From assembly GCA_039933475.1 (NCBI GenBank), contig JBDTOA010000001.1, positions 1-33,842 on the forward strand: a stretch of DNA of 33,842 nt. Direction: 5' to 3'. This document shows positions 2,030-27,098 of the stretch, one piece after another. The stretch comes from Dermatophilaceae bacterium (GTDB lineage: Bacteria; Actinomycetota; Actinomycetes; Actinomycetales; Dermatophilaceae). The notes under the pieces were generated by a model. It saw only the letters and a list, made by a program, of their open reading frames with translations, was not told where the DNA came from and searched no databases. The translations under genes and the position numbers were made by a program. How positions within the stretch are numbered: the stretch's first letter is position 1; each line of letters starts with the position of its first letter.

Positions 2030-2367
2030 ATGTTCGTGCTCAGCCGGAGGAATCGAGATCACTGTGGTCACATCAGCTGATCCTCGTTGAGTTGAGCTGG
2101 TCGTTTTGGTGGCCTGCAGGCCACACCCCGGACAGCGACGATCTCTTCGGGAGACGGCTCCGAGCTGCCGACTGGTACGAGATGGTCGTTGCGTCCGAGA
2201 CCGGGTCGCTGGGATCTGCGCGGCACGAGGACGGCGAGAGTAGTCCTTCGGGATGAGGACACGGCTCGGGCCCTGGAGCAGAGTGGACCTGGATGCCTCG
2301 GCGATTTGACAAGAGCACCCACCGCGACCGCGACCGCGCCCGCGAACTCCTCGCCAAGGAGCACCAC

Positions 2368-3324
2368 ATGCACCGGAAGTCCCTGCTGCGTCGGCTGGCA
2401 CTGGCCGTCGTCACCGTCACTGCCCTGGCCGTTCCTGTCGCCCTGGGCTCGAACGCTTCTGCAGTGACCGGAGGCCCCCGCACCTGGCAAGTCCGCGTCG
2501 GCACCGAGTCACCTGACATGGCCGTCAGTGCGATGGCGTTCTTGCCGAAGGAGGTCTGGGTCGACGTCGGCGACACCGTCCACTGGACTGCGGGCAGCGC
2601 CGAGCCGCACACCGTCACGTTCCTCGCGCCGGGAGACTCACTCCCCGAGTTCAACCTCTTCGACCCGTCGCAGACGGGTCCTGTTGGCTCCTCGAGCTAC
2701 GACGGCACCGGGTACACGAACTCCGGGATCATCGCCACCCAGCCGATCTTCGTCTTCACCGACCCGGCGTCCAGCTACGACCTGACCTTCACAGCGACCG
2801 GCGACTTCACGTACTACTGCCTGTTGCACGGCGTAATGATGACCGGCGTCGTGCACGTCAGCGCGGCCGGCACTGCCTACCCGTACACCCAGCAGGACTA
2901 CAACCGGGCCGGCAACCACCAGGCCGCGGCAGCGCTCTTTGCCGGACGCACCGCCTATCGCCAGGCCAGGCAGGCGCACGCCACCACCGGCTCACAGGTA
3001 CAGGTCGGGATTGACGGAGAAGGCTTCTCGGTCATGCGGTTCGTGCGAGACAACGTCGTCGTGCACGTGGGAGAGACCGTGTCGTTCTCCACCGCCGGGC
3101 CCGGCGCGCCGCACACAGTCACCTTCGGCCAGGAGCCGCCCGGACTCGGAGTCCTCGGTCCGTCCGGCGACCCGACCCACTACGGCGGCGGCGACCTCAA
3201 CAGCGGGGTGCTTGCGCCCGGGGTCCCGTTCACCGTGACCTTCACCGCCGCTGGCAAGTACCACTACATCTGCGCCATCCACGACGACATGGGGATGGTA
3301 GGCGACGTCGTGGTCGTCCCCTGA
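2368..3324 (+). CDS. Secreted tandem-cupredoxin (plastocyanin/azurin-like) copper protein
   Basis: AAGGAG lies 6 nt upstream of the ATG at 2368. The signal peptide is MHRKSLLRRLALAVVTVTALAVPVALGSNASA. There are two repeats, each with a type-1 copper ligand set: EPHTVTF...YYCLLHGVMM and APHTVTF...YICAIHDDMGM. The ORF-track start at 2293 is probably too far upstream. Confidence 0.85.
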   Translation: MHRKSLLRRLALAVVTVTALAVPVALGSNASAVTGGPRTWQVRVGTESPDMAVSAMAFLPKEVWVDVGDTVHWTAGSAEPHTVTFLAPGDSLPEFNLFDPSQTGPVGSSSYDGTGYTNSGIIATQPIFVFTDPASSYDLTFTATGDFTYYCLLHGVMMTGVVHVSAAGTAYPYTQQDYNRAGNHQAAAALFAGRTAYRQARQAHATTGSQVQVGIDGEGFSVMRFVRDNVVVHVGETVSFSTAGPGAPHTVTFGQEPPGLGVLGPSGDPTHYGGGDLNSGVLAPGVPFTVTFTAAGKYHYICAIHDDMGMVGDVVVVP

Positions 3325-4408: not shown

Positions 4409-5107
4409 GTGGCCACAATCTTGCTCATCGAGGACGACGTAGGGATCCGGTCGGCGATGACCCGGACCCTGACCGACCTGGGCCATGCCGTTGCAACAAG
4501 CGACCGGGGCATGCCCGGGCTGGAGCTGGCCGTCGACAACCCACCTGACGTCGTGCTGCTCGATCTCGGCCTGCCGGACCTCGATGGGTTGCAGGTGCTG
4601 GCGATGCTGCGCGCGGTCAGTGCGGTGCCGGTGATCATCATCACGGCCCGCGATGACGATGCTGACATCGTGGCGGCCCTCGACGGTGGCGCCGACGACT
4701 ACGTGGTCAAGCCGTTCGGGATCGAGCAGGTCGACGCCCGACTCCGCGCTGTTCTTCGTCGAAGCAGCTCTGCGGCCGCGGACGGCCCTCTGGTCGTAGG
4801 GGGGCTCAGCATCGACTCGCGGACGCGGCAGGTCACTCTTGACGGGCTCCCGATTGACCTGTCGCGTAAGGAGTTCGACCTGCTCTTTGCCCTGGCGCAG
4901 CGACCCGGGGAAGTGGTCACGAAGCGCGAGCTGCTTGCCGACGTCTGGCGCCAGAGCTATGGAGGGGGCGACCGGACGGTCGACGTCCACCTGTCGTGGT
5001 TGCGGCGCAAGCTCGGCGAGACCGCAGCGGATCCACGCTACCTGCACAGTGTCCGTGGCGTGGGTGTGCGGCTTGCAGCTCCCCCAGACGCGTCCAGCGG
5101 GCATTGA
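4409..5107 (+). CDS. OmpR/PhoB-family response regulator
   Basis: The receiver domain is ILLIEDD...VVLLDLGLPDLDG...DDYVVKPF. The C-terminal winged-helix region is LSRKEFDLLFALAQRPGEVVTKRELLADVW...RTVDVHLSWLRRKL. GTG start. Confidence 0.93.
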   Translation: MATILLIEDDVGIRSAMTRTLTDLGHAVATSDRGMPGLELAVDNPPDVVLLDLGLPDLDGLQVLAMLRAVSAVPVIIITARDDDADIVAALDGGADDYVVKPFGIEQVDARLRAVLRRSSSAAADGPLVVGGLSIDSRTRQVTLDGLPIDLSRKEFDLLFALAQRPGEVVTKRELLADVWRQSYGGGDRTVDVHLSWLRRKLGETAADPRYLHSVRGVGVRLAAPPDASSGH

Positions 5108-6402
5108 TGCGTCGTCGGATCTCATTGCTTGTGGCGGCCACGACATCAGCGGTCATCCTCGCATTCTTGATCCCGTTGGGGATGCTGGTACGCACTCTCG
5201 CTGAAGACCGGGCCATCGCCGGCGCCAGCCAGGAAGCGCAGGCGGTTGCCACTCTGGTCGCCGGGGTGAATGACGAGACCCAGCTCACAGACCTGGTCGG
5301 TCTGGTCGACCAGCGGTCGCAGCGGGCCACGTCGGTTCTGTTGCCTGACGGCACTCTCATCGGCACGGCCCCGCAAGGCTCGGCGAAGTCGAATGCTTCG
5401 GCAGTGGCGCGAGCAAGAACCGGTGAGGCGTTCACCCTCATACAGGACGAGAACGCAGAAGTTGTCGTGCCCGTTGTCACCGAGCGCGGCACTGTGGTCG
5501 TGCGGACCTCGATCAGCGGTGGCGACCTGCACCGGGGGGTGGCCACGGCGTGGCTTACCTTCGCGGGTCTGGGGGTGGTGCTCATGATCATCGCAGTGGT
5601 CGGCGCAAATCTGCTGGGGCGTCGAGTCAGTGCCCCGGTGACCGAGCTGGCCGCCGTGGCGCACCGCCTTCGGGCGGGAGAGCTGGAGGCCAGAGCGGTG
5701 CCACGCGGACCCGTCGAGACCGTCGAGCTGGGCGAAGCACTCAATCGCCTGGCCGACCGCATCGGTGAGCTGCTCACAGCAGAACGGGAGGCGGTTGCCG
5801 ATCTCTCGCACCGGCTGCGAACTCCGGTCACCGCGTTGCGCCTGGATGCCGAAGCCGTCGCCGAGCCCGAGCTCGCAGACCGACTCCGTGATCACATCGG
5901 CCACCTTGAGCGCACGGTGGACGCCGTTGTCAAAGATGCTCGGCGCCCCGTCCGAGGGACCATCGGACGGTCGTGCGACGCCTCAGCTGTGGTGCGAGAC
6001 CGGGTCGCCTTCTGGTCGGCGCTGGCCGTTGACCAGGACCGGAACCTCAACGTCTCCATCCCTTCGACTCCCTGCCTGGCGGCCATCGATGCATCCGATC
6101 TCGTGGATGTTGTAGACGCGTTGTTGGACAACGTCTTTGCGCACACTCCTGACGGGACTGACTTCTCCGTGTCCCTGACAAGAAGCGATCAGAAGATGCT
6201 GCGTCTGGAGGTCGCAGACGACGGCCCAGGAGCCGGGGACACTGACGTTGCCAGACGCGGTCACAGCACCGGCGACTCCAGCGGTCTTGGTCTGGATATC
6301 GTGCGAAGGGCCGCGGTCGCCGCCGGCGGAGGGCTGGTGGTTGCCAGCTCCCCAACCGGCGGCATGCTGGCTCTGGTCACACTGGGAGTCAGCACAGGCT
6401 GA
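5107..6402 (+). CDS. Sensor histidine kinase (2 TM, HAMP, HisKA, HATPase)
   Basis: The ATG at 5107 overlaps the regulator stop (TGATG). TM1 is ISLLVAATTSAVILAFLIPLGML, followed by an extracytoplasmic loop of about 140 aa, and TM2 is WLTFAGLGVVLMIIAVVGANLL. The H-box is SHRLRTPVTAL. N, G1 and G2 boxes are DNVFAHTP, DDGPGAG and GLGLDIV. Confidence 0.92.
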   Translation: MRRRISLLVAATTSAVILAFLIPLGMLVRTLAEDRAIAGASQEAQAVATLVAGVNDETQLTDLVGLVDQRSQRATSVLLPDGTLIGTAPQGSAKSNASAVARARTGEAFTLIQDENAEVVVPVVTERGTVVVRTSISGGDLHRGVATAWLTFAGLGVVLMIIAVVGANLLGRRVSAPVTELAAVAHRLRAGELEARAVPRGPVETVELGEALNRLADRIGELLTAEREAVADLSHRLRTPVTALRLDAEAVAEPELADRLRDHIGHLERTVDAVVKDARRPVRGTIGRSCDASAVVRDRVAFWSALAVDQDRNLNVSIPSTPCLAAIDASDLVDVVDALLDNVFAHTPDGTDFSVSLTRSDQKMLRLEVADDGPGAGDTDVARRGHSTGDSSGLGLDIVRRAAVAAGGGLVVASSPTGGMLALVTLGVSTG

Positions 6403-6425: not shown

Positions 6426-6908
6426 TCAGTGCGAGGCCTCCATGCTGTCATCGTGAACGGCTTCTGTGGCGCCGTCGTCAGCTGAGCTGTCGTCGGTCGT
6501 GCCCTCGGCGTCGTCCTTCTCCTCCATAGCATCATCGCCGACCTTCGTCGTGTCTTCGGGGGCTTTGATCGCACTCCCCGGAGCCTCTGACGCGTCGTCG
6601 CCCGAAGCGGACGGCCCGGTGCTCTCTTGGGCACCAGTACTGTCGTCCGACACCTGTGAGCCGGTCGGAACCTGAGCGGCAGCTGGAGCCGGAACCACGA
6701 GGGTGCGCACGACATGTATGACGCATACGCCGTCCTCCAGCTTCTGGCCTTTGGCACAGTGGGCAACCGCAGCCGGTACTGACACCGCAGCCTTTGTCGT
6801 CTTCATGCTCGGCGTGGCGGCGGAGGACACGGCACCGTAGACCGCGGCCCCGGCAACGAGGCCTAAGGCAGCGCCGCTGATGACGGTAAAGCTCGGGCGG
6901 ATAATCAT
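6426..6908 (-). CDS. Membrane-anchored acidic low-complexity protein (unknown function)
   Basis: GGAGA lies 4 nt upstream of the ATG at 6908. The N-terminal anchor is FTVISGAALGLVAGAAVYGAV. It has a short HC-x10-C-x2-H motif (AHCAKGQKLEDGVCVIH) and then a D/E/S/T-rich tail. Its GC3 is lower than that of its neighbours. Confidence 0.6.
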   Translation of the reverse strand: MIIRPSFTVISGAALGLVAGAAVYGAVSSAATPSMKTTKAAVSVPAAVAHCAKGQKLEDGVCVIHVVRTLVVPAPAAAQVPTGSQVSDDSTGAQESTGPSASGDDASEAPGSAIKAPEDTTKVGDDAMEEKDDAEGTTDDSSADDGATEAVHDDSMEASH

Positions 6909-7033: not shown

Positions 7034-7074
7034 GCTTGACGTCTCCTTAACACCAATCTGAGGCCGCCTTGTAC
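7034..7074 (+). promoter_or_regulatory. Array B: four 11-bp-phased repeats (weaker matches to TCTTGAGG)
   Basis: The 8-mers at 7034, 7045, 7056 and 7067 are GCTTGACG, CCTTAACA, ATCTGAGG and CCTTGTAC. The array mirrors array A (ACGTCAAG vs CTTGACGT) and lies 72-112 bp upstream of the 7146 start. Confidence 0.4.
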
Positions 7075-7145
7075 CTCCGGCCCGCACCCTTGCCTCTGCT
7101 GTGCTTCTGCACCTCTGGGGTGCCCGCAGAGATGAAAGGAATCCA

Positions 7146-7688
7146 ATGAGCCACGTCATGCTCTGGTTCGCGAACCGCGGAACCGGGGTCGTCCTGCTCG
7201 TGCTGCTGACACTCTCGACGATGATAGGTGTCCTCTCCACATCCCGCCTGAGCCCGCGGCTCTGGCCTCGGATGCTGACCCAGGGTCTGCACCGCCACGT
7301 AGCCGTGCTGGCGCTCAGCTTCATGGCTGCCCACACCCTGACAGCCGTTGCAGACAGCTTCATCGACATTCGCTGGTGGCATGCCGTTGTGCCGTTCACC
7401 GGTTCCTACCGACAGCCCTGGCTGGGCATCGCGGCTCTCTCGATGGACCTGTTCATCGCCGTTGGGGTGACGAGCGCACTTCGCCACCGGATGTCACATC
7501 GGCCCTGGCGTGGCGTTCACGTCCTCGCCTATGGCGCATGGGGCCTCGGGCTCGTCCACGGGATCCACGGAACCGACTCCGCCACCATCTGGGGGCAAGC
7601 ACTGAACTACGGGTCAGTTGCCGCCGTCACGATCGCAGTCCTCGCTCGCATAGGACTGCTCGCCCATTCGAAGGTCGTGACTGCATGA
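7146..7688 (+). CDS. Ferric-reductase-type (NOX/MsrQ-like) two-haem transmembrane protein, paralog 1
   Basis: AAAGGA lies 6 nt upstream of the ATG at 7146. There are about 5 hydrophobic helices. His49/His63 are 14 apart and His125/His138 are 13 apart, which matches the bis-haem ligand spacing of gp91phox-type ferric reductase domains. Confidence 0.8.
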   Translation: MSHVMLWFANRGTGVVLLVLLTLSTMIGVLSTSRLSPRLWPRMLTQGLHRHVAVLALSFMAAHTLTAVADSFIDIRWWHAVVPFTGSYRQPWLGIAALSMDLFIAVGVTSALRHRMSHRPWRGVHVLAYGAWGLGLVHGIHGTDSATIWGQALNYGSVAAVTIAVLARIGLLAHSKVVTA

Positions 7689-7702
7689 GCTCAGCCCAGC
7701 AA

Positions 7703-7743
7703 TCTTGAGGTTTTCTTAAGGCTGACCTGATGCCGTCTTGCGG
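7703..7743 (+). promoter_or_regulatory. Array C: four 11-bp-phased repeats, consensus TCTTGAGG
   Basis: TCTTGAGG (7703), TCTTAAGG (7714), ACCTGATG (7725) and TCTTGCGG (7736). The array lies 46-86 bp upstream of the 7789 start, in the only sizeable gap inside the cluster. Confidence 0.55.
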
Positions 7744-7788
7744 CCCGGGGCCCGACTCTGGTGGCTGCCAACCCGATGGAGGACCTGG

Positions 7789-8253
7789 ATGCCCCGCGAC
7801 ACCGCGTCTCGCGACGTGAAGCTCAACGCCCTGGCCATACTCACAGGTGGGATCACAGCGGCCGCCTTCGTAGGCACCGGCCTCGTCACCGGCATGGCTG
7901 CCGACTACACGGCGCAGAAGACCCAGGCGAAGGCGGCGTCCAAGACTGCTGCCCTTCGCGCGCTGCCGGCGCCTCAGCCCGTTGCCAAACCTCTGCCCGT
8001 CCGCACGGTCGTGACGACCCGGATTGTCCAGGGCGCTCCCGCCGTAGCTGCCCAGACCGGTGGCTCGGGTGGCCAGTTCCGCAGTGGCACGTCCTCGTCC
8101 TCATCCTCGTCCTCATCCAGCCGCTCATCCGCGGCCGCGCCCGCACCAGTCGCTGCTCGTGCCGCCGCGCCGGCCCCTGCTCGTGCCCCCGCTCCTGCAC
8201 CTGTGGCTGCGCCCAAGCCGGCGGCTGCTCCCGCTCCCTCTGCGGCCTCTTGA
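7789..8253 (+). CDS. Single-pass membrane protein with Ser-run and Ala/Pro-rich tail (unknown function)
   Basis: GGAGGA lies 5 nt upstream of the ATG at 7789. GC3 is high through the anchor LNALAILTGGITAAAFVGTGLVTGMAA. This is followed by ...GGSGGQFRSGTSSSSSSSSSSRSS and (A/P)n. The stop overlaps the apbE start (TGATG). No recognisable folded domain. Confidence 0.6.
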   Translation: MPRDTASRDVKLNALAILTGGITAAAFVGTGLVTGMAADYTAQKTQAKAASKTAALRALPAPQPVAKPLPVRTVVTTRIVQGAPAVAAQTGGSGGQFRSGTSSSSSSSSSSRSSAAAPAPVAARAAAPAPARAPAPAPVAAPKPAAAPAPSAAS

Positions 8254-9197
8254 TGCCTGCCCTCGAGGTCCGGGAGACGGCGGGGGCCGGGACTGCGAGC
8301 TGGCGAGCCCTGGGCACCTATGTCTACCTCTCAACAGCGGATGTGACAGGGCTGGAGCGCGCACGCCGGATCGCGGTCCGACTGCTCGCCGAGGTCGACC
8401 GCACCTGCAGCCGTTTCCGCCCGGACTCCGACCTGGTCCGCGCGAATCTCAATGCCGGAGCGTGGACCAAGGTTGACCCGCTGCTGGTCCAGGCGATCGA
8501 CACGGCCATGGACGCGGCGGCTCAGACCGACGGGCTCGTAGACCCGACGCTGGGCCGGTCACTCGTTGCGGTTGGCTACGACCGTGACCTTGCTCTGATG
8601 CCGGCCGCATCCTCGGGACCCGCGGGCTTGCCCATACCCGCGCGAAACGGTGCCTGGGCGGAGATTCTGCTCGATCCAGCCGGCGCAGTCCTTGTGCCTT
8701 ATGGGTGCGCGTTGGACCTCGGGGCCACGGCCAAGGCATGGGCCGCTGACCTTATCGCGGGGATCATTGCAGCAGATTCTGACTCGATGTTGGTCATCAG
8801 CCTCGGCGGTGACGTCGCGGTGGCGGGACCTGGCGGCGGATGGCCTGTGGCGATCAGCGAGACGATCGACGACGTGGCCGGTGCCGAGATCGTGCACCTC
8901 CCCTACGGCGGGTTGGCCACCTCCAGCACAGCCGCCCGACGATGGACTCGAGGTGGCGTCACACGCCACCACCTCCTCGACCCGCTCACGGGCGAACCGA
9001 CGCAGGGCCCCTGGCGGACCGTAACTGCCACCGGCGCCACCTGCGTGTCGGCGAACACAGCCAGCACAGCCGCGATCGTGCTGGGCAACGGGGCAGTGGC
9101 GTGGCTCACAGAGCATGACATTCCCGCACGCCTTGTCGACGGGGAAGGCAGGATCGTCCGTACAGCACGTTGGCCCAAGCCGGAGGTGCTTTCATGA
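8253..9197 (+). CDS. apbE: ApbE-family FAD:protein FMN transferase
   Basis: Family-typical segments are WRALGTYVYLST..., DRTCSRFRPDSDL, VDPTLG, LDLGATAKAWAAD, ISLGGDV and HHLLDPLTGEP. No signal peptide or lipobox follows the start at 8253. The ORF-track frame is open back to 7761, but that extension looks like an artefact. Confidence 0.85.
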   Translation: MPALEVRETAGAGTASWRALGTYVYLSTADVTGLERARRIAVRLLAEVDRTCSRFRPDSDLVRANLNAGAWTKVDPLLVQAIDTAMDAAAQTDGLVDPTLGRSLVAVGYDRDLALMPAASSGPAGLPIPARNGAWAEILLDPAGAVLVPYGCALDLGATAKAWAADLIAGIIAADSDSMLVISLGGDVAVAGPGGGWPVAISETIDDVAGAEIVHLPYGGLATSSTAARRWTRGGVTRHHLLDPLTGEPTQGPWRTVTATGATCVSANTASTAAIVLGNGAVAWLTEHDIPARLVDGEGRIVRTARWPKPEVLS

Positions 9198-9739
9198 CCG
9201 ACCCAATGTTGTGGTTTGCCAACCGAGGAACCGGCGTTGTGCTGCTGGTGCTGCTGACCCTCTCGACGCTGCTCGGAGTACTCTCCGGCGCACGTCTTCA
9301 CAACGCGATGTGGTCGCGGATGCTGTCCCAGGGCCTGCACCGCAATGTCTCTTTGCTGGCTGTCGCGCTCATGGCCGCCCACGCCACGACAGCGGTGGTC
9401 GACTCCTTCGTCGACATCCGCTGGTGGCATGCATTCGTCCCGTTCGCCGGAACCTACAAGCCGGTCTGGCTCGGCTTCGGCGCCCTGGCGATGGACCTCT
9501 TGATTGCCGTCACGATCACCAGCGTTCTGCGCCATCGGATGTCACATCGGCCGTGGCGCGCCGTACACCTGCTGGCCTACGCCGCATGGGGCCTTGGCCT
9601 CTTCCACGGGCTGCGAATGGGAACCGACGCGGCCACGGCGTGGGGCACAGCGGTGAACATCAGCTGTGTCGGGGTGGTCTCCGTGGCCGTCCTCGCCCGC
9701 CTCGGCATGCTCGCGCGCTCAACGGCGGCGACCTCATGA
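9194..9739 (+). CDS. Ferric-reductase-type two-haem transmembrane protein, paralog 2
   Basis: The ATG at 9194 overlaps the apbE stop (ATGA), and GGAGG lies upstream. By hand alignment it is about two-thirds identical to the 7146-7688 product. His49, His63, His125 and His138 are all conserved. Confidence 0.8.
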   Translation: MTDPMLWFANRGTGVVLLVLLTLSTLLGVLSGARLHNAMWSRMLSQGLHRNVSLLAVALMAAHATTAVVDSFVDIRWWHAFVPFAGTYKPVWLGFGALAMDLLIAVTITSVLRHRMSHRPWRAVHLLAYAAWGLGLFHGLRMGTDAATAWGTAVNISCVGVVSVAVLARLGMLARSTAATS

Positions 9740-10989
9740 AGTCGCCCATCACGGCCCACGTCGCCGTCCGCAACGACATAGGGCTGGCCCCATATGTGTC
9801 GGAAGGCCCTGCCCTTCTTGCCGGCATCGCAGAAGGCCCGGGCCTCGCCGCTCACCGCCGCCGCCACGGCCCGGCTCCGGCTCCGAGCGCTGACTCGCTC
9901 GTCGAGATGGCCAAAGCCGTGGATCTGCGCGGACGCGGGGGCGCCGGATTCCCTTTTGCGATCAAGCTCGCCACCGCTGCCCGCCGCAAGGCGGTCGTCG
10001 TGGTGAACGCGTCAGAAGGTGAGCCCGCGAGCCACAAGGACGCAGCACTGATCACCTGCTCACCGCATCTTGTCCTGGACGGCGCGGCGGCAGTGGCCCA
10101 TGCGCTGCGTACCCGCGAGGTCCACATCGCCGTGCCTTCCGAGTTCCCCGCCATCCGGCTGGCACTTGAGAGGGCCGTGGGTGAGCGTGCCGCCGATGGT
10201 GAGCGCCTGAACGTACGGCTCCACGACGCATCCCCACGCTTCGTTGCCGGTCAGGCCCAGGCAGTCCTACAGCTCCTTGCGGGTCGCGAGAACCTACCGG
10301 TCACCGCGTGGCAGCCGGAGGCCGTCAGCGGACACCGTGGTCGGCCCACGTTGTTGTCGAACGCCGAGACCTTCGCCCAGATCGGGCACCTGTGTGGTGT
10401 GGGTCCGAAGGGCTATGCCACTCAGGGCACGACACTTGAGCCGGGCACCACCTTGTTGACCCTTCGGGGCGACGGCATGGATCCGCAGGTCCTCGAGGTG
10501 GCTTATGGCACACCGCTGGATGAGGTCCTGGACGAGGCCGAGATGCTCCGCCCGCTGCTGCTGGGCGGCTACCACGGCACGTGGCTGACCCCAAAGCAGC
10601 TGCGCGGCCTGACCGTCTCCCGCAGCGACATCGCGGCGGCCGGGGCAACCCTCGGTGCGGGCGTGATGCTGCCCCTGGCGGAAGGCTGGTGCCCGCTGGT
10701 GCGTACTGCTGCGTTGGTCGACTACCTGGCGGGCCAGAGTGCCGGACGGTGCGGTCCGTGCCTGAACGGTCTGCCGGCGATGGCCGAGGCGCTCCGAGCG
10801 CTTGTGCATGGTGGCGGCCCGGTTCGCCGGGTGGAGGAGCTGTGCGGGCTGGTCGTGAGACGCGGCGCCTGTGCACATCCTGACGGAACGGCCCGCCTCG
10901 TGACCTCGATGCTGCAGCGCTTCGCCGAGGAGGTCGACTCCCACTCCTTGGGCACCTGTCGAAGCAGTCGGGAAGGTGCCCTCGTATGA
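9736..10989 (+). CDS. NuoF-like NAD(P)H/FMN-binding protein (Complex1_51K + SLBB + Fe-S-region-like)
   Basis: The ATG at 9736 overlaps the upstream stop (ATGA). DLRGRGGAGFPFAIK matches the NuoF FMN/NADH glycine motif. The C-terminal SAGRCGPCLNG...GACAHPDG aligns with the NuoF ESCGxCxPCReG...C region, with the first Cys replaced by Ala. Confidence 0.8.
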   Translation: MKSPITAHVAVRNDIGLAPYVSEGPALLAGIAEGPGLAAHRRRHGPAPAPSADSLVEMAKAVDLRGRGGAGFPFAIKLATAARRKAVVVVNASEGEPASHKDAALITCSPHLVLDGAAAVAHALRTREVHIAVPSEFPAIRLALERAVGERAADGERLNVRLHDASPRFVAGQAQAVLQLLAGRENLPVTAWQPEAVSGHRGRPTLLSNAETFAQIGHLCGVGPKGYATQGTTLEPGTTLLTLRGDGMDPQVLEVAYGTPLDEVLDEAEMLRPLLLGGYHGTWLTPKQLRGLTVSRSDIAAAGATLGAGVMLPLAEGWCPLVRTAALVDYLAGQSAGRCGPCLNGLPAMAEALRALVHGGGPVRRVEELCGLVVRRGACAHPDGTARLVTSMLQRFAEEVDSHSLGTCRSSREGALV

Positions 10990-11201
10990 CCGAGCACCAG
11001 CTCCGGGTGGACTGGCCCGCCTGCAAGGCGCACGGTCTGTGCGCCGAGCTCCTGCCCGAGGTCGTCAGCCTCGACGAGTGGGGCTATCCAATCGTGCATG
11101 AGCCAGTGAAGGGCGACGTGCTCGCGATGGCCAAACGCGCTGTCAAGGCATGCCCCACGCTGGCCCTGCGGCTCACCCAGCAGCCCCCGCGTCACAGCTG
11201 A
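10986..11201 (+). CDS. Small single-cluster ferredoxin (CxxHxxC...CP type)
   Basis: 71 aa with an ATGA overlap to the upstream gene. CKAHGLC...ACP is the three-Cys pattern reported for actinobacterial [3Fe-4S] ferredoxins. Confidence 0.8.
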   Translation: MTEHQLRVDWPACKAHGLCAELLPEVVSLDEWGYPIVHEPVKGDVLAMAKRAVKACPTLALRLTQQPPRHS

Positions 11202-26629: not shown

Positions 26630-26693
26630 GTTGACATTCTGCCGTGCCACCCCCTCGTCAAAGGCATCAGAACCCTGCGTGTTGGATCTAGGG

Positions 26694-27098
26694 ATGCTTC
26701 CCATCGACCTCGACGTGATCCGACTGACCCTGCACGTGCTCGGAGCGACCATCTGGGTGGGCGGCCAGATCGTCCTGGCCGCGCTCGTGGGGCCGCTGCG
26801 CCGCGTTGCACCCAATGCCGTCGCCCCGGCCGCCCGTGTCTTCGCATGGGTCGGCTGGCCGGCGTTTGCCGTTCTCGTGCTGACCGGCATCTGGATGCTC
26901 ACCGGCGGCGACGAGATGAGCGATGCCCTGCAGACCACCTTGATGATCAAGCTGACGCTTGTGGCACTCTCCGGCCTGGGCGCTGCGCTGCACACGTTTG
27001 CCAAGAGCCCGGTTCTCAAGAGTGTCTGGGGAACGGTCGGGCTGGTGTGCGCGCTGGGCGTGGTCCTGCTCGGCGTGTCGATCGTCGAAGGCGGCTGA
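26694..27098 (+). CDS. Small integral membrane protein (about 4 TM, unknown function)
   Basis: [31 protein letters not shown]... with four hydrophobic segments and good GC3. The ATG at 26694 is preferred over the ORF-track start at 26631. Confidence 0.6.

Follow-up and report, generated by a model that had tools for sequence, protein, structure and literature searches.

A short open reading frame (ORF) lies immediately ahead of a leaderless apbE gene in the 33,842-nt stretch of Dermatophilaceae DNA analysed here (contig JBDTOA010000001.1, hereafter the window), and we propose that its 154-residue product is probably the dedicated substrate of the adjacent ApbE, with a rough probability of 0.6. 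In this reading of the sequence the small protein would act as a natural C-terminal flavin tag, held on a membrane leash and serving an MsrQ-like electron conduit. The small protein is probably a substrate without a domain of its own because the pair recurs in every comparable operon. Coordinates are positions in the window unless assigned to another locus, and all genes of the operon are on the + strand. Its elements include a transferase that takes flavin mononucleotide (FMN) from flavin adenine dinucleotide (FAD) and a protein that binds reduced nicotinamide adenine dinucleotide or its phosphate (NAD(P)H):

7779..7784, + strand: Shine-Dalgarno sequence GGAGGA, read from the sequence, 4 nt 5' of the ATG at 7789
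7789..8253, + strand: small ORF, 154 amino acids (aa); basic N-terminal RD motif, one transmembrane (TM) helix, low-complexity linker and conserved C-terminus
8253..9197, + strand: ApbE-family FAD:protein FMN transferase, leaderless, 314 aa; Pfam PF02424, 148.6 bits
9194..9739, + strand: MsrQ-like (ferric-reductase-like) membrane protein, 181 aa; four conserved His
9736..10989, + strand: NuoF-like NAD(P)H-binding flavoprotein with a 4Fe-4S site; Pfam Complex1_51K 2.9e-31, NADH_4Fe-4S 1.3e-15
10986..11201, + strand: small single-cluster ferredoxin, 71 aa; Pfam Fer4_15 1.6e-11

These five genes form a conserved, translationally coupled module. The sequence TGATG at 8251-8255 combines the stop codon of the small ORF (TGA, 8251-8253) with the start codon of apbE (ATG, 8253-8255), and ATGA overlaps at 9194-9197, 9736-9739 and 10986-10989 join the apbE, MsrQ-like, NuoF-like and ferredoxin genes in turn. 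The small ORF has an alternative start, TTG at 7738; with the start at 7789 it begins as its homologues do, with MSRDT or MSRET.

The small protein gave no significant match to Pfam and none to NCBIfam, and by these searches it contains none of the known substrate folds (FMN_bind, NqrB/RnfD, DUF2271, DUF3570, Flavodoxin_4, FMN_red). Its homologues are all annotated as hypothetical proteins. An AlphaFold2 model consists of a single helix over residues 5-57, with no other secondary structure and no fold. An earlier sequence-only reading had described this ORF as a membrane anchor followed by a low-complexity tail that runs into apbE through the TGATG overlap, and the ORF analysis, the domain searches and the model all agree with that description. 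The parts of the protein are:

7822..7902, + strand: TM anchor, residues ~12-38, LNALAILTGGITAAAFVGTGLVTGMAA, preceded by R3, R8 and K11; assigned from hydrophobicity and flanking charges
7990..8028, + strand: block P-x-R-T-V-V-T-T-R, residues 68-80, within the otherwise variable tail
8092..8130, + strand: Ser run (10 Ser, Arg, 2 Ser) that forms a hypervariable linker of low complexity
8239..8250, + strand: C-terminal S-A-A-S, the four codons that precede the stop, with the proposed flavinylation site Ser154

Within the PxRTVVTTR block, the family alignment shows R72 and V74 to be invariant and P68, P70, T73 and V75-T77 to be nearly so. The residues just after the TM helix differ by group, reading L-P-G-S-T in six loci (L033, L042, L064, L072, L074, L079), A-F-P-G-[KR] in Solirubrobacterales and A-A-D-Y-T in the clade of the window.

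A scan of one genome per species yielded 507 loci with an ApbE relative, and we examined the best 80 of these together with the window, giving 81 loci. An MsrQ-like gene lies directly 3' of apbE in 74 of the 81, a NuoF-like gene accompanies it in 72 and a ferredoxin gene in 69. Of the 74 loci with the MsrQ-like gene, L040 is truncated on the 5' side; the other 73 operons could be assessed, and all of them have a small ORF ending in [ST]-x-[GA]-S-stop immediately 5' of a leaderless apbE. Each of the 73 small ORFs encodes a short basic N-terminus bearing an R-D motif, then a single hydrophobic helix and a tail of low complexity, 32-168 residues long, that closes with the terminal motif. The hosts of this pairing comprise Dermatophilaceae, Nocardioides, Streptosporangiaceae, Streptomyces, Solirubrobacterales and one metagenome-assembled genome (MAG) of Dormibacterota. 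This last locus (L041, Candidatus Dormibacteraeota) places the operon outside Actinomycetota, and its small ORF ends T-I-S-G-G-S. Nocardioides antri and the Streptomyces strain of L068 are culturable carriers, and other genomes with the operon include OY969898.1, OY968774.1, OY970168.1, OY970282.1 and NZ_VUJW01. The DNA of the window is that of an uncultured actinobacterium. The closest ApbE relatives come from Dermatophilaceae MAGs at ~80% identity, and rhizosphere and soil metagenomes hold near-identical contigs.

Some loci carry additional genes. In a Streptosporangiaceae locus (L064) an MFS_3 (EntS-like) transporter gene occupies positions 7036-8802 of the - strand between apbE and the MsrQ-like gene, and extra spacing of the same kind occurs in L033, L059, L065, L079 and L085, mostly Streptosporangiaceae. 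The insertion points, weakly, to a connection with siderophores or iron. A 479-aa ORF without a Pfam match that had been called at this place in L064 was discarded as a wrong-frame reading, the real gene being the transporter on the opposite strand. In Solirubrobacterales, a weakly DUF4405-like membrane protein is encoded 5' of the small ORF.

The C-terminus is where conservation of the tail is highest. The ending varies by group, and the variant follows the ApbE tree:

(V/T)-S-G-G-S: Solirubrobacterales and many Streptosporangiaceae
T-S-G-A-S: Streptomyces, Micrococcales and others
P-S-S-G-S: Nocardioides-like
P-S-A-A-S: Dermatophilaceae, including the window, where the protein ends APSAAS

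Information content reaches 3.2-4.2 bits at the last four positions, compared with 1.3-2.7 bits at positions -5 to -20, and an ending of the form [ST]-x-[GA]-S is expected from tail composition at a rate of only ~0.8%. Ser is the last residue of every one of the 66 in-context members examined. The exact sequence SGAS accounts for 15 of 67 tabulated endings (one of the 67, L043, being out of context), the others being SGGS, SSGS and, in the clade of the window, SAAS. When a separate library of 1.84 billion representative proteins was searched with a profile, it gave 112 matches, almost all of 120-190 aa; the motif closes 74 of them, and a further 12 finish with near variants, STGS among them. 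The sequence-only reading had reported no flavinylation motif in the cluster. That holds for the strict form of the motif, and the reading overlooked the C-terminal APSAAS, the PxRTVVTTR block and the N-terminal RD. Of the three explanations that it offered, the one in which the low-complexity protein is itself the substrate or a tether is best supported, given the conserved [ST]-x-[GA]-S-stop and the exact TSGAS of sister clades. One Dermatophilaceae MAG (DATCNE01) holds two paralogous operons, L009 and L060, whose ApbEs are 81% and 46% identical to that of the window; both small proteins end S-A-A-S, though the nearest ApbE relatives of L060 end S-G-A-S. The shared ending hints at a lineage-wide constraint on the motif.

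As the motif codons lie directly ahead of apbE, a role as its ribosome-binding site was considered. The Ser at -1 is encoded by TCA, TCC, TCG and TCT, the Ser at -4 by both TCN and AGC codons, and the Gly at -3 and Gly/Ala at -2 take all four third bases, so that each motif position uses 3-5 synonymous codons. The SAAS clade has no G-rich, Shine-Dalgarno-like run at the motif. Because of this synonymous variation and the G-poor SAAS clade, we conclude that the motif is selected at the protein level and reject the apbE Shine-Dalgarno sequence as the sole cause of its conservation. Such a role cannot account for the two Ser positions.

ApbE recognises [S/T]GA[S/T] and modifies the last Ser/Thr, and the same logic identified DUF2271 and DUF3570 proteins as substrates (PMC8238504). 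A tag of seven residues at the C-terminus suffices for flavinylation by ApbE (PMC12052999). Published surveys dropped ApbE and FMN_bind genes without signal peptides, and orphan ApbEs with unidentified substrates remain (PMC8238504). We looked for other candidates around the operon. The strict motif D-x-x-[ST]GA[ST] occupied no consistent operon position within ~6 kb in the 81 loci, where it gave ten scattered and unrelated matches, and alignments of the MsrQ-like, NuoF-like and ferredoxin proteins (67-73 orthologues) contain no conserved motif. Of all the operon products, only the small protein has a conserved motif. A second suggestion of the sequence-only reading, that ApbE acts in the cytoplasm on a non-canonical target, is borne out in part: the enzyme is leaderless throughout the clade, and no cytoplasmic protein of the cluster has a conserved motif.

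The ApbE domain itself is unambiguous (8253-9197; E 3.2e-43, 148.6 bits against a cut-off of 25.6), with residues 21-288 aligned to profile positions 2-258. The first 20 residues of the protein, MPALEVRETAGAGTASWRAL, show neither hydrophobic character nor a lipobox, confirming that the enzyme lacks a leader, and no export signal or hydrophobic N-terminus was found in any of the 81 loci. The closest 120 ApbE homologues are all called at 299-352 aa. A start missed further upstream, which would have supplied a leader, was also considered. The candidate, GTG at 7761 in the apbE frame, was rejected: the frame of the small ORF has the higher GC content at third codon positions (GC3) over 7740-8040, its protein is conserved in relatives, and the open apbE frame upstream ranges from 11 to 210 codons among loci.

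Matches in the PDB were 1vrm, 6nxi, 3pnd and 5mgy, with E values from 3e-23 (best 2.9e-23) to 2e-14. S224, R229, H239/H240, K161 and the segment DLGATAKAWAAD are invariant in the 81 clade ApbEs, and S224, H240 and K161 align with the active-site Ser and His (Vibrio cholerae Ser241 and His257) and the FAD-binding Lys of the solved structures. Because Ser224, His240, Lys161 and Arg229 are invariant, the enzyme is expected to be active, though its metal site differs, as described below. An AlphaFold2 model of ApbE built from a shallow alignment had a mean predicted local distance difference test (pLDDT) score of 48.6 and was too poor for use.

The neighbouring genes offer plausible redox partners. 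In the MsrQ-like protein His49, 63, 124 and 138 are conserved at >=90%, with the spacing found in di-haem ferric-reductase domains, and an outer loop, DSF(V/I)DIRWWH, is conserved as well; the copy in the operon is unmatched by Pfam Ferric_reduct, and orthologues pass its threshold with 31.4 and 37.2 bits. The NuoF-like protein matches NCBIfam nuoF_fam at 1.4e-49, which is below the cut-off of that model, and keeps the glycine-rich flavin/NADH loop and the 4Fe-4S Cys. MsrQ-like clusters with apbE, some of them with NuoF-like genes, are typical of Actinobacteria, and in the model put forward for them NAD(P)H feeds a cytoplasmic module, haems cross the membrane and a flavinylated protein accepts the electrons (PMC8238504). 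The components of the operon match this published model.

From this arrangement we infer the attachment of FMN, the membrane side of the tail and the role of the flavin. The small protein would consist of a single-pass anchor and a flexible low-complexity leash, with the last four residues, [ST]-x-[GA]-Ser-COOH, acting as the flavin tag. With FAD as donor, ApbE would attach FMN to the terminal Ser (Ser154), and the tethered FMN would serve the neighbouring MsrQ-like di-haem protein in place of an FMN_bind protein. The NuoF-like NAD(P)H flavoprotein and the ferredoxin would feed the MsrQ-like protein from the cytoplasm.

The position of the tail can be predicted from the charges around the helix. 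Within the 15 flanking residues, Lys plus Arg average ~4.5 on the N-terminal side and exceed those on the C-terminal side in 64 of 67 family members, with the N-terminal side never lower. Because of this excess, the tail is predicted to lie outside (N-in/C-out). Export of the small protein by the Tat route was rejected, the N-terminal motif being R-D and not twin-Arg. By a slight preference, we favour a tail that is extracytoplasmic, to which cytoplasmic ApbE would attach FMN before or during export, over a tail that stays in the cytoplasm. As the C-terminus is the last part to be translocated, FMN could be added there first and the unfolded tail then exported, after which it would take electrons from the outer haem and pass them to acceptors within the wall or outside it. 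A tail kept in the cytoplasm could instead provide the flavin required by MsrQ, NOX and STEAP-type proteins on their inner side. As a further option, ApbE might leave the cell by a non-standard route.

A fuller version of the exported-tail scheme joins three steps, and as a whole we hold it to be doubtful. In it, the tail would be flavinylated in the cytoplasm and then threaded out, the acceptor Ser being the last residue of a disordered chain, the end that would stay longest in the cytoplasm and could pass the translocon unfolded. The loss of an Asp at the Mg2+ site of the enzyme would be offset by the terminal carboxylate of the substrate, and the product would be an FMN tethered to the membrane by a leash of 30-170 residues, which would bring electrons from the outer haem of the MsrQ-like protein across the actinobacterial wall. 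The replacement of the lost Asp carboxylate by the substrate carboxylate is speculative, and against it stand four clade members that have no small ORF nearby and yet share the same change at the metal site.

Several observations weigh against the small protein as substrate. Four members of the clade (L043, L067, L071 and L081) lack the small ORF nearby; their ApbEs are leaderless and also carry Asn, and in L043 (2264-3791) and L067 (4885-6948) the gene order is YbjN-like, ApbE, CoA-transferase. The tail and its motif are predicted outside the cell, and the leaderless ApbE inside. The motif of the window, SAAS, differs from strict [ST]GA[ST] by a Gly-to-Ala change, and the Asp three residues ahead of the core (D-x-x-[ST]GA[ST]) is not present, position -7 being mostly Pro or Gln. 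In published work the Gly-to-Ala change in the motif lowers flavinylation and does not abolish it, and changing the Asp of the first position to Ala has minor effects (PMC12052999). A Shine-Dalgarno role for apbE may add to the preference for Gly at -2 and -3. An FMN_bind protein elsewhere in the operon, which the sequence-only reading had named as an ordinary explanation, was not found in the DNA covered, which comprised the window and, in the relatives, the operon and ~6 kb around it. The metal site also departs from the canonical one:

9054..9056, + strand: codon of Asn268, where canonical ApbEs have the Mg2+-ligating Asp (V. cholerae Asp285, FmnB Asp301)

Asn268 is present in 81/81 clade members, versus Asp (in 'AD' or 'TAD') in 1vrm, 5mgy, 6nxi and 4ifu, and the canonical ATSGDY segment reads ATSST..RRW in the clade, with Arg229 and Trp231 invariant. 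In FmnB, Asp301 ligates both Mg2+ ions, and activity falls sharply or disappears when the residues that coordinate Mg2+ are replaced by alanine (PMC8906456, PMC12052999). With Asn at the metal site, the chemistry of the clade enzymes may differ from that of canonical ApbE.

Three other explanations were considered. The small protein might be an unmodified anchor, scaffold or assembly factor, for example one that holds ApbE or the NuoF-like protein and ferredoxin at the MsrQ-like protein, with the target of ApbE (FMN_bind, DUF2271 or other) encoded elsewhere. The leaderless enzyme, the tail predicted outside, the clade members without the ORF and an FMN_bind search confined to ~6 kb around the operon rather than genome-wide would all suit such a role, and the conservation of the N-terminal RD and of the PxRTVVTTR block is suggestive of contacts between proteins. 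We nevertheless regard it as unlikely, since it leaves unexplained why conservation in the tail peaks at its last four residues and why these resemble the ApbE motif, and why the terminal residue is Ser in 66/66 in-context members; nor was an alternative substrate found within ~6 kb in the 81 loci. It is rather improbable that the clade enzyme has instead acquired a changed activity, such as that of an FAD pyrophosphatase, flavin trafficking or transfer of another nucleotide-derived group, with the small-protein C-terminus as a ligand or a different acceptor. The invariant Asn268 in place of an Asp that binds both Mg2+ in FmnB (PMC8906456) and the altered ATSGDY segment speak for it, as does Ftp of Treponema, an ApbE-family protein described as hydrolysing FAD rather than transferring FMN (PMC4767422). 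Against it, the clade retains the Ser, His, Arg and Lys as well as the FAD-binding segment, and the motif of the partner is the flavinylation motif. Moreover, the side-chain carbonyl of an Asn can still ligate Mg2+.

The remaining explanation, also raised by the sequence-only reading, is that a single gene for a membrane-tethered ApbE has been split by a frameshift, whether a sequencing error, a pseudogene or a programmed event. In its favour, the apbE frame is open back to 7761 and has a GC3 of 0.88-0.93 over 8040-8250, and three database proteins (P0026, P0172 and P0221) join anchor and ApbE. The GC3 signal was dismissed as a composition artefact, because Ala, Pro and Ser codons have C as second base and raise the score of the shifted frame. 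The apparent fusions contain wrong-frame stretches rich in Arg and Cys and further frameshifts, and were set aside as artefacts of assembly or gene calling; they are a caution for gene calls in low-complexity, GC-rich DNA. In relatives, where fusion of the two parts had been suggested as a check, they are separate ORFs in 73/73 assessable operons, with stop/start registers that vary by locus (-3, 0, +2, +3 and +5) and overlap in most, and the 120 closest ApbE homologues are no longer than 299-352 aa. The suspected indels in the low-complexity region (8090-8255) proved to be in frame. Six independent Logan assemblies of the same organism keep the two ORFs and differ by +12 nt and -12 nt indels and a few single-nucleotide polymorphisms (SNPs); the +12 nt variant (L005) lies in the Ser run, where synonymous TCA/TCG SNPs also occur among assemblies. 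Contigs of four runs show one 12-nt deletion (run X4, at 8173) and changes at 8115 (A>G) and 8220, both at third codon positions of the small ORF. The comparative data refute the frameshift, and we give it hardly any weight. The 12-nt indels of L005, L006 and X4 fall in the Ser run and the Ala/Pro region (8092-8200) and produce small proteins of 150, 154 and 158 aa.

Upstream of the operon lie further genes that may be seen in the same context:

4409..5107, + strand: OmpR-type response regulator, from gene call and Pfam domains
5107..6402, + strand: HAMP histidine kinase, from gene call and Pfam domains
7146..7688, + strand: second MsrQ-like paralogue; Pfam Ferric_reduct 24.8 bits, below the cut-off of 28 bits

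A response-regulator homologue is found within 6 kb in 59 of the 81 loci and a kinase homologue in 41. The two MsrQ-like paralogues (7146-7688 and 9194-9739) share 66% identity by BLASTP (E 2e-72); the upstream copy is present in none of the 80 related loci and looks like a lineage-specific duplication. Between the kinase and this copy, a divergent gene on the - strand (6426-6908) encodes a 160-aa protein whose N-terminus is hydrophobic and which also has a Cys pair (CAKGQKLEDGVC) and a long tail rich in Asp and Glu. Homologues stand at the same place in Dermatophilaceae (L007, L009), and an analogous protein in L013 has a tail rich in His and Asp. The protein may bind metal. The remainder of the window (~67% GC) is ordinary core chromosome with pyk, gltBD, lgt, the trp operon, his genes, transporters and a cupredoxin. 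The cupredoxin (Copper-bind) domains belong to a 343-aa protein at 2293-3324, and a small CopD-like membrane protein is encoded at 26631-27098; neither has an evident link to the operon. A scan for promoters and terminators was uninformative in such high-GC DNA.

ApbE flavinylation underlies many extracytosolic redox systems, and some ApbEs are without a known substrate (PMC8238504). If our proposal is correct, the small protein represents a new class of substrate without a flavin-binding fold, the natural counterpart of the engineered flavin tag, and it accounts for a widespread five-gene operon of soil Actinobacteria. It also raises the question of how a leaderless transferase modifies a tail that is predicted to be extracellular. 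The clade enzymes are natural variants of ApbE in which Asn replaces Asp at the metal site, and a short natural tag with a cognate cytoplasmic enzyme could serve in protein labelling.

None of the known substrate classes (FMN_bind, NqrB/RnfD, DUF2271, DUF3570, Flavodoxin_4 and FMN_red) is a domain-less tethered tail, and no description of such an ApbE substrate was found in the literature searched, which did not extend to all journals. The nearest relatives of the operon are the MsrQ-like flavinylation clusters (Meheust et al. 2021, eLife, PMC8238504), which likewise pair a PF01794 di-haem protein with apbE in the same host phylum and, in 31 described clusters, include a NuoF-like (PF10589) NAD(P)H module. 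Those clusters contain an FMN_bind gene and were selected for ApbE or FMN_bind proteins with signal peptides. The operon of the window differs in lacking an FMN_bind gene and in pairing a leaderless ApbE with a candidate substrate devoid of domains. The motif also sits on an unstructured C-terminal extension in the flavinylated FMN_red proteins of Huang et al. (2024, mSystems, PMC11334425), whose genes are associated with apbE. In these proteins the extension folds back on the flavin pocket of the FMN_red domain in the same chain; the small protein has no domain in cis, so any flavin pocket must come in trans, for example from the MsrQ-like protein.

A signal peptide is typical of ApbE and does not define it, since cytosolic ApbEs exist (PMC12052999). 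The cytoplasmic ApbE of Klebsiella pneumoniae resembles the present enzyme in having no signal peptide and acting inside the cell (PMC12052999); its target is a soluble fumarate reductase with FMN_bind and a canonical motif, whereas the candidate here is a membrane protein whose tail is predicted outside. In Listeria, FmnB and PplA provide a Gram-positive precedent: there a carrier tethered to the membrane undergoes ApbE-type flavinylation and sends electrons outward, as is proposed here. The invariant Arg of the clade lies five residues past the catalytic Ser, as Arg262 does past Ser257 in FmnB, a match by spacing only and not by alignment. In contrast to the leaderless, Asn-bearing ApbE and the domain-less carrier of the window, FmnB, a secreted lipoprotein, has Asp301, and the FMN_bind domains of PplA are folded.

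The closest parallel to the proposed tag itself is synthetic. The flavin tag of Tong et al. (2021; reviewed in PMC12052999) is likewise a short terminal peptide that contains the motif, and it works best at the N- or C-terminus. That tag is engineered, reads D-x-x-S-G-A-T and is attached to folded cargo, whereas the candidate described here is natural, lacks the Asp, varies among G, A and S within the motif and would be borne at the end of a membrane-anchored, disordered chain.

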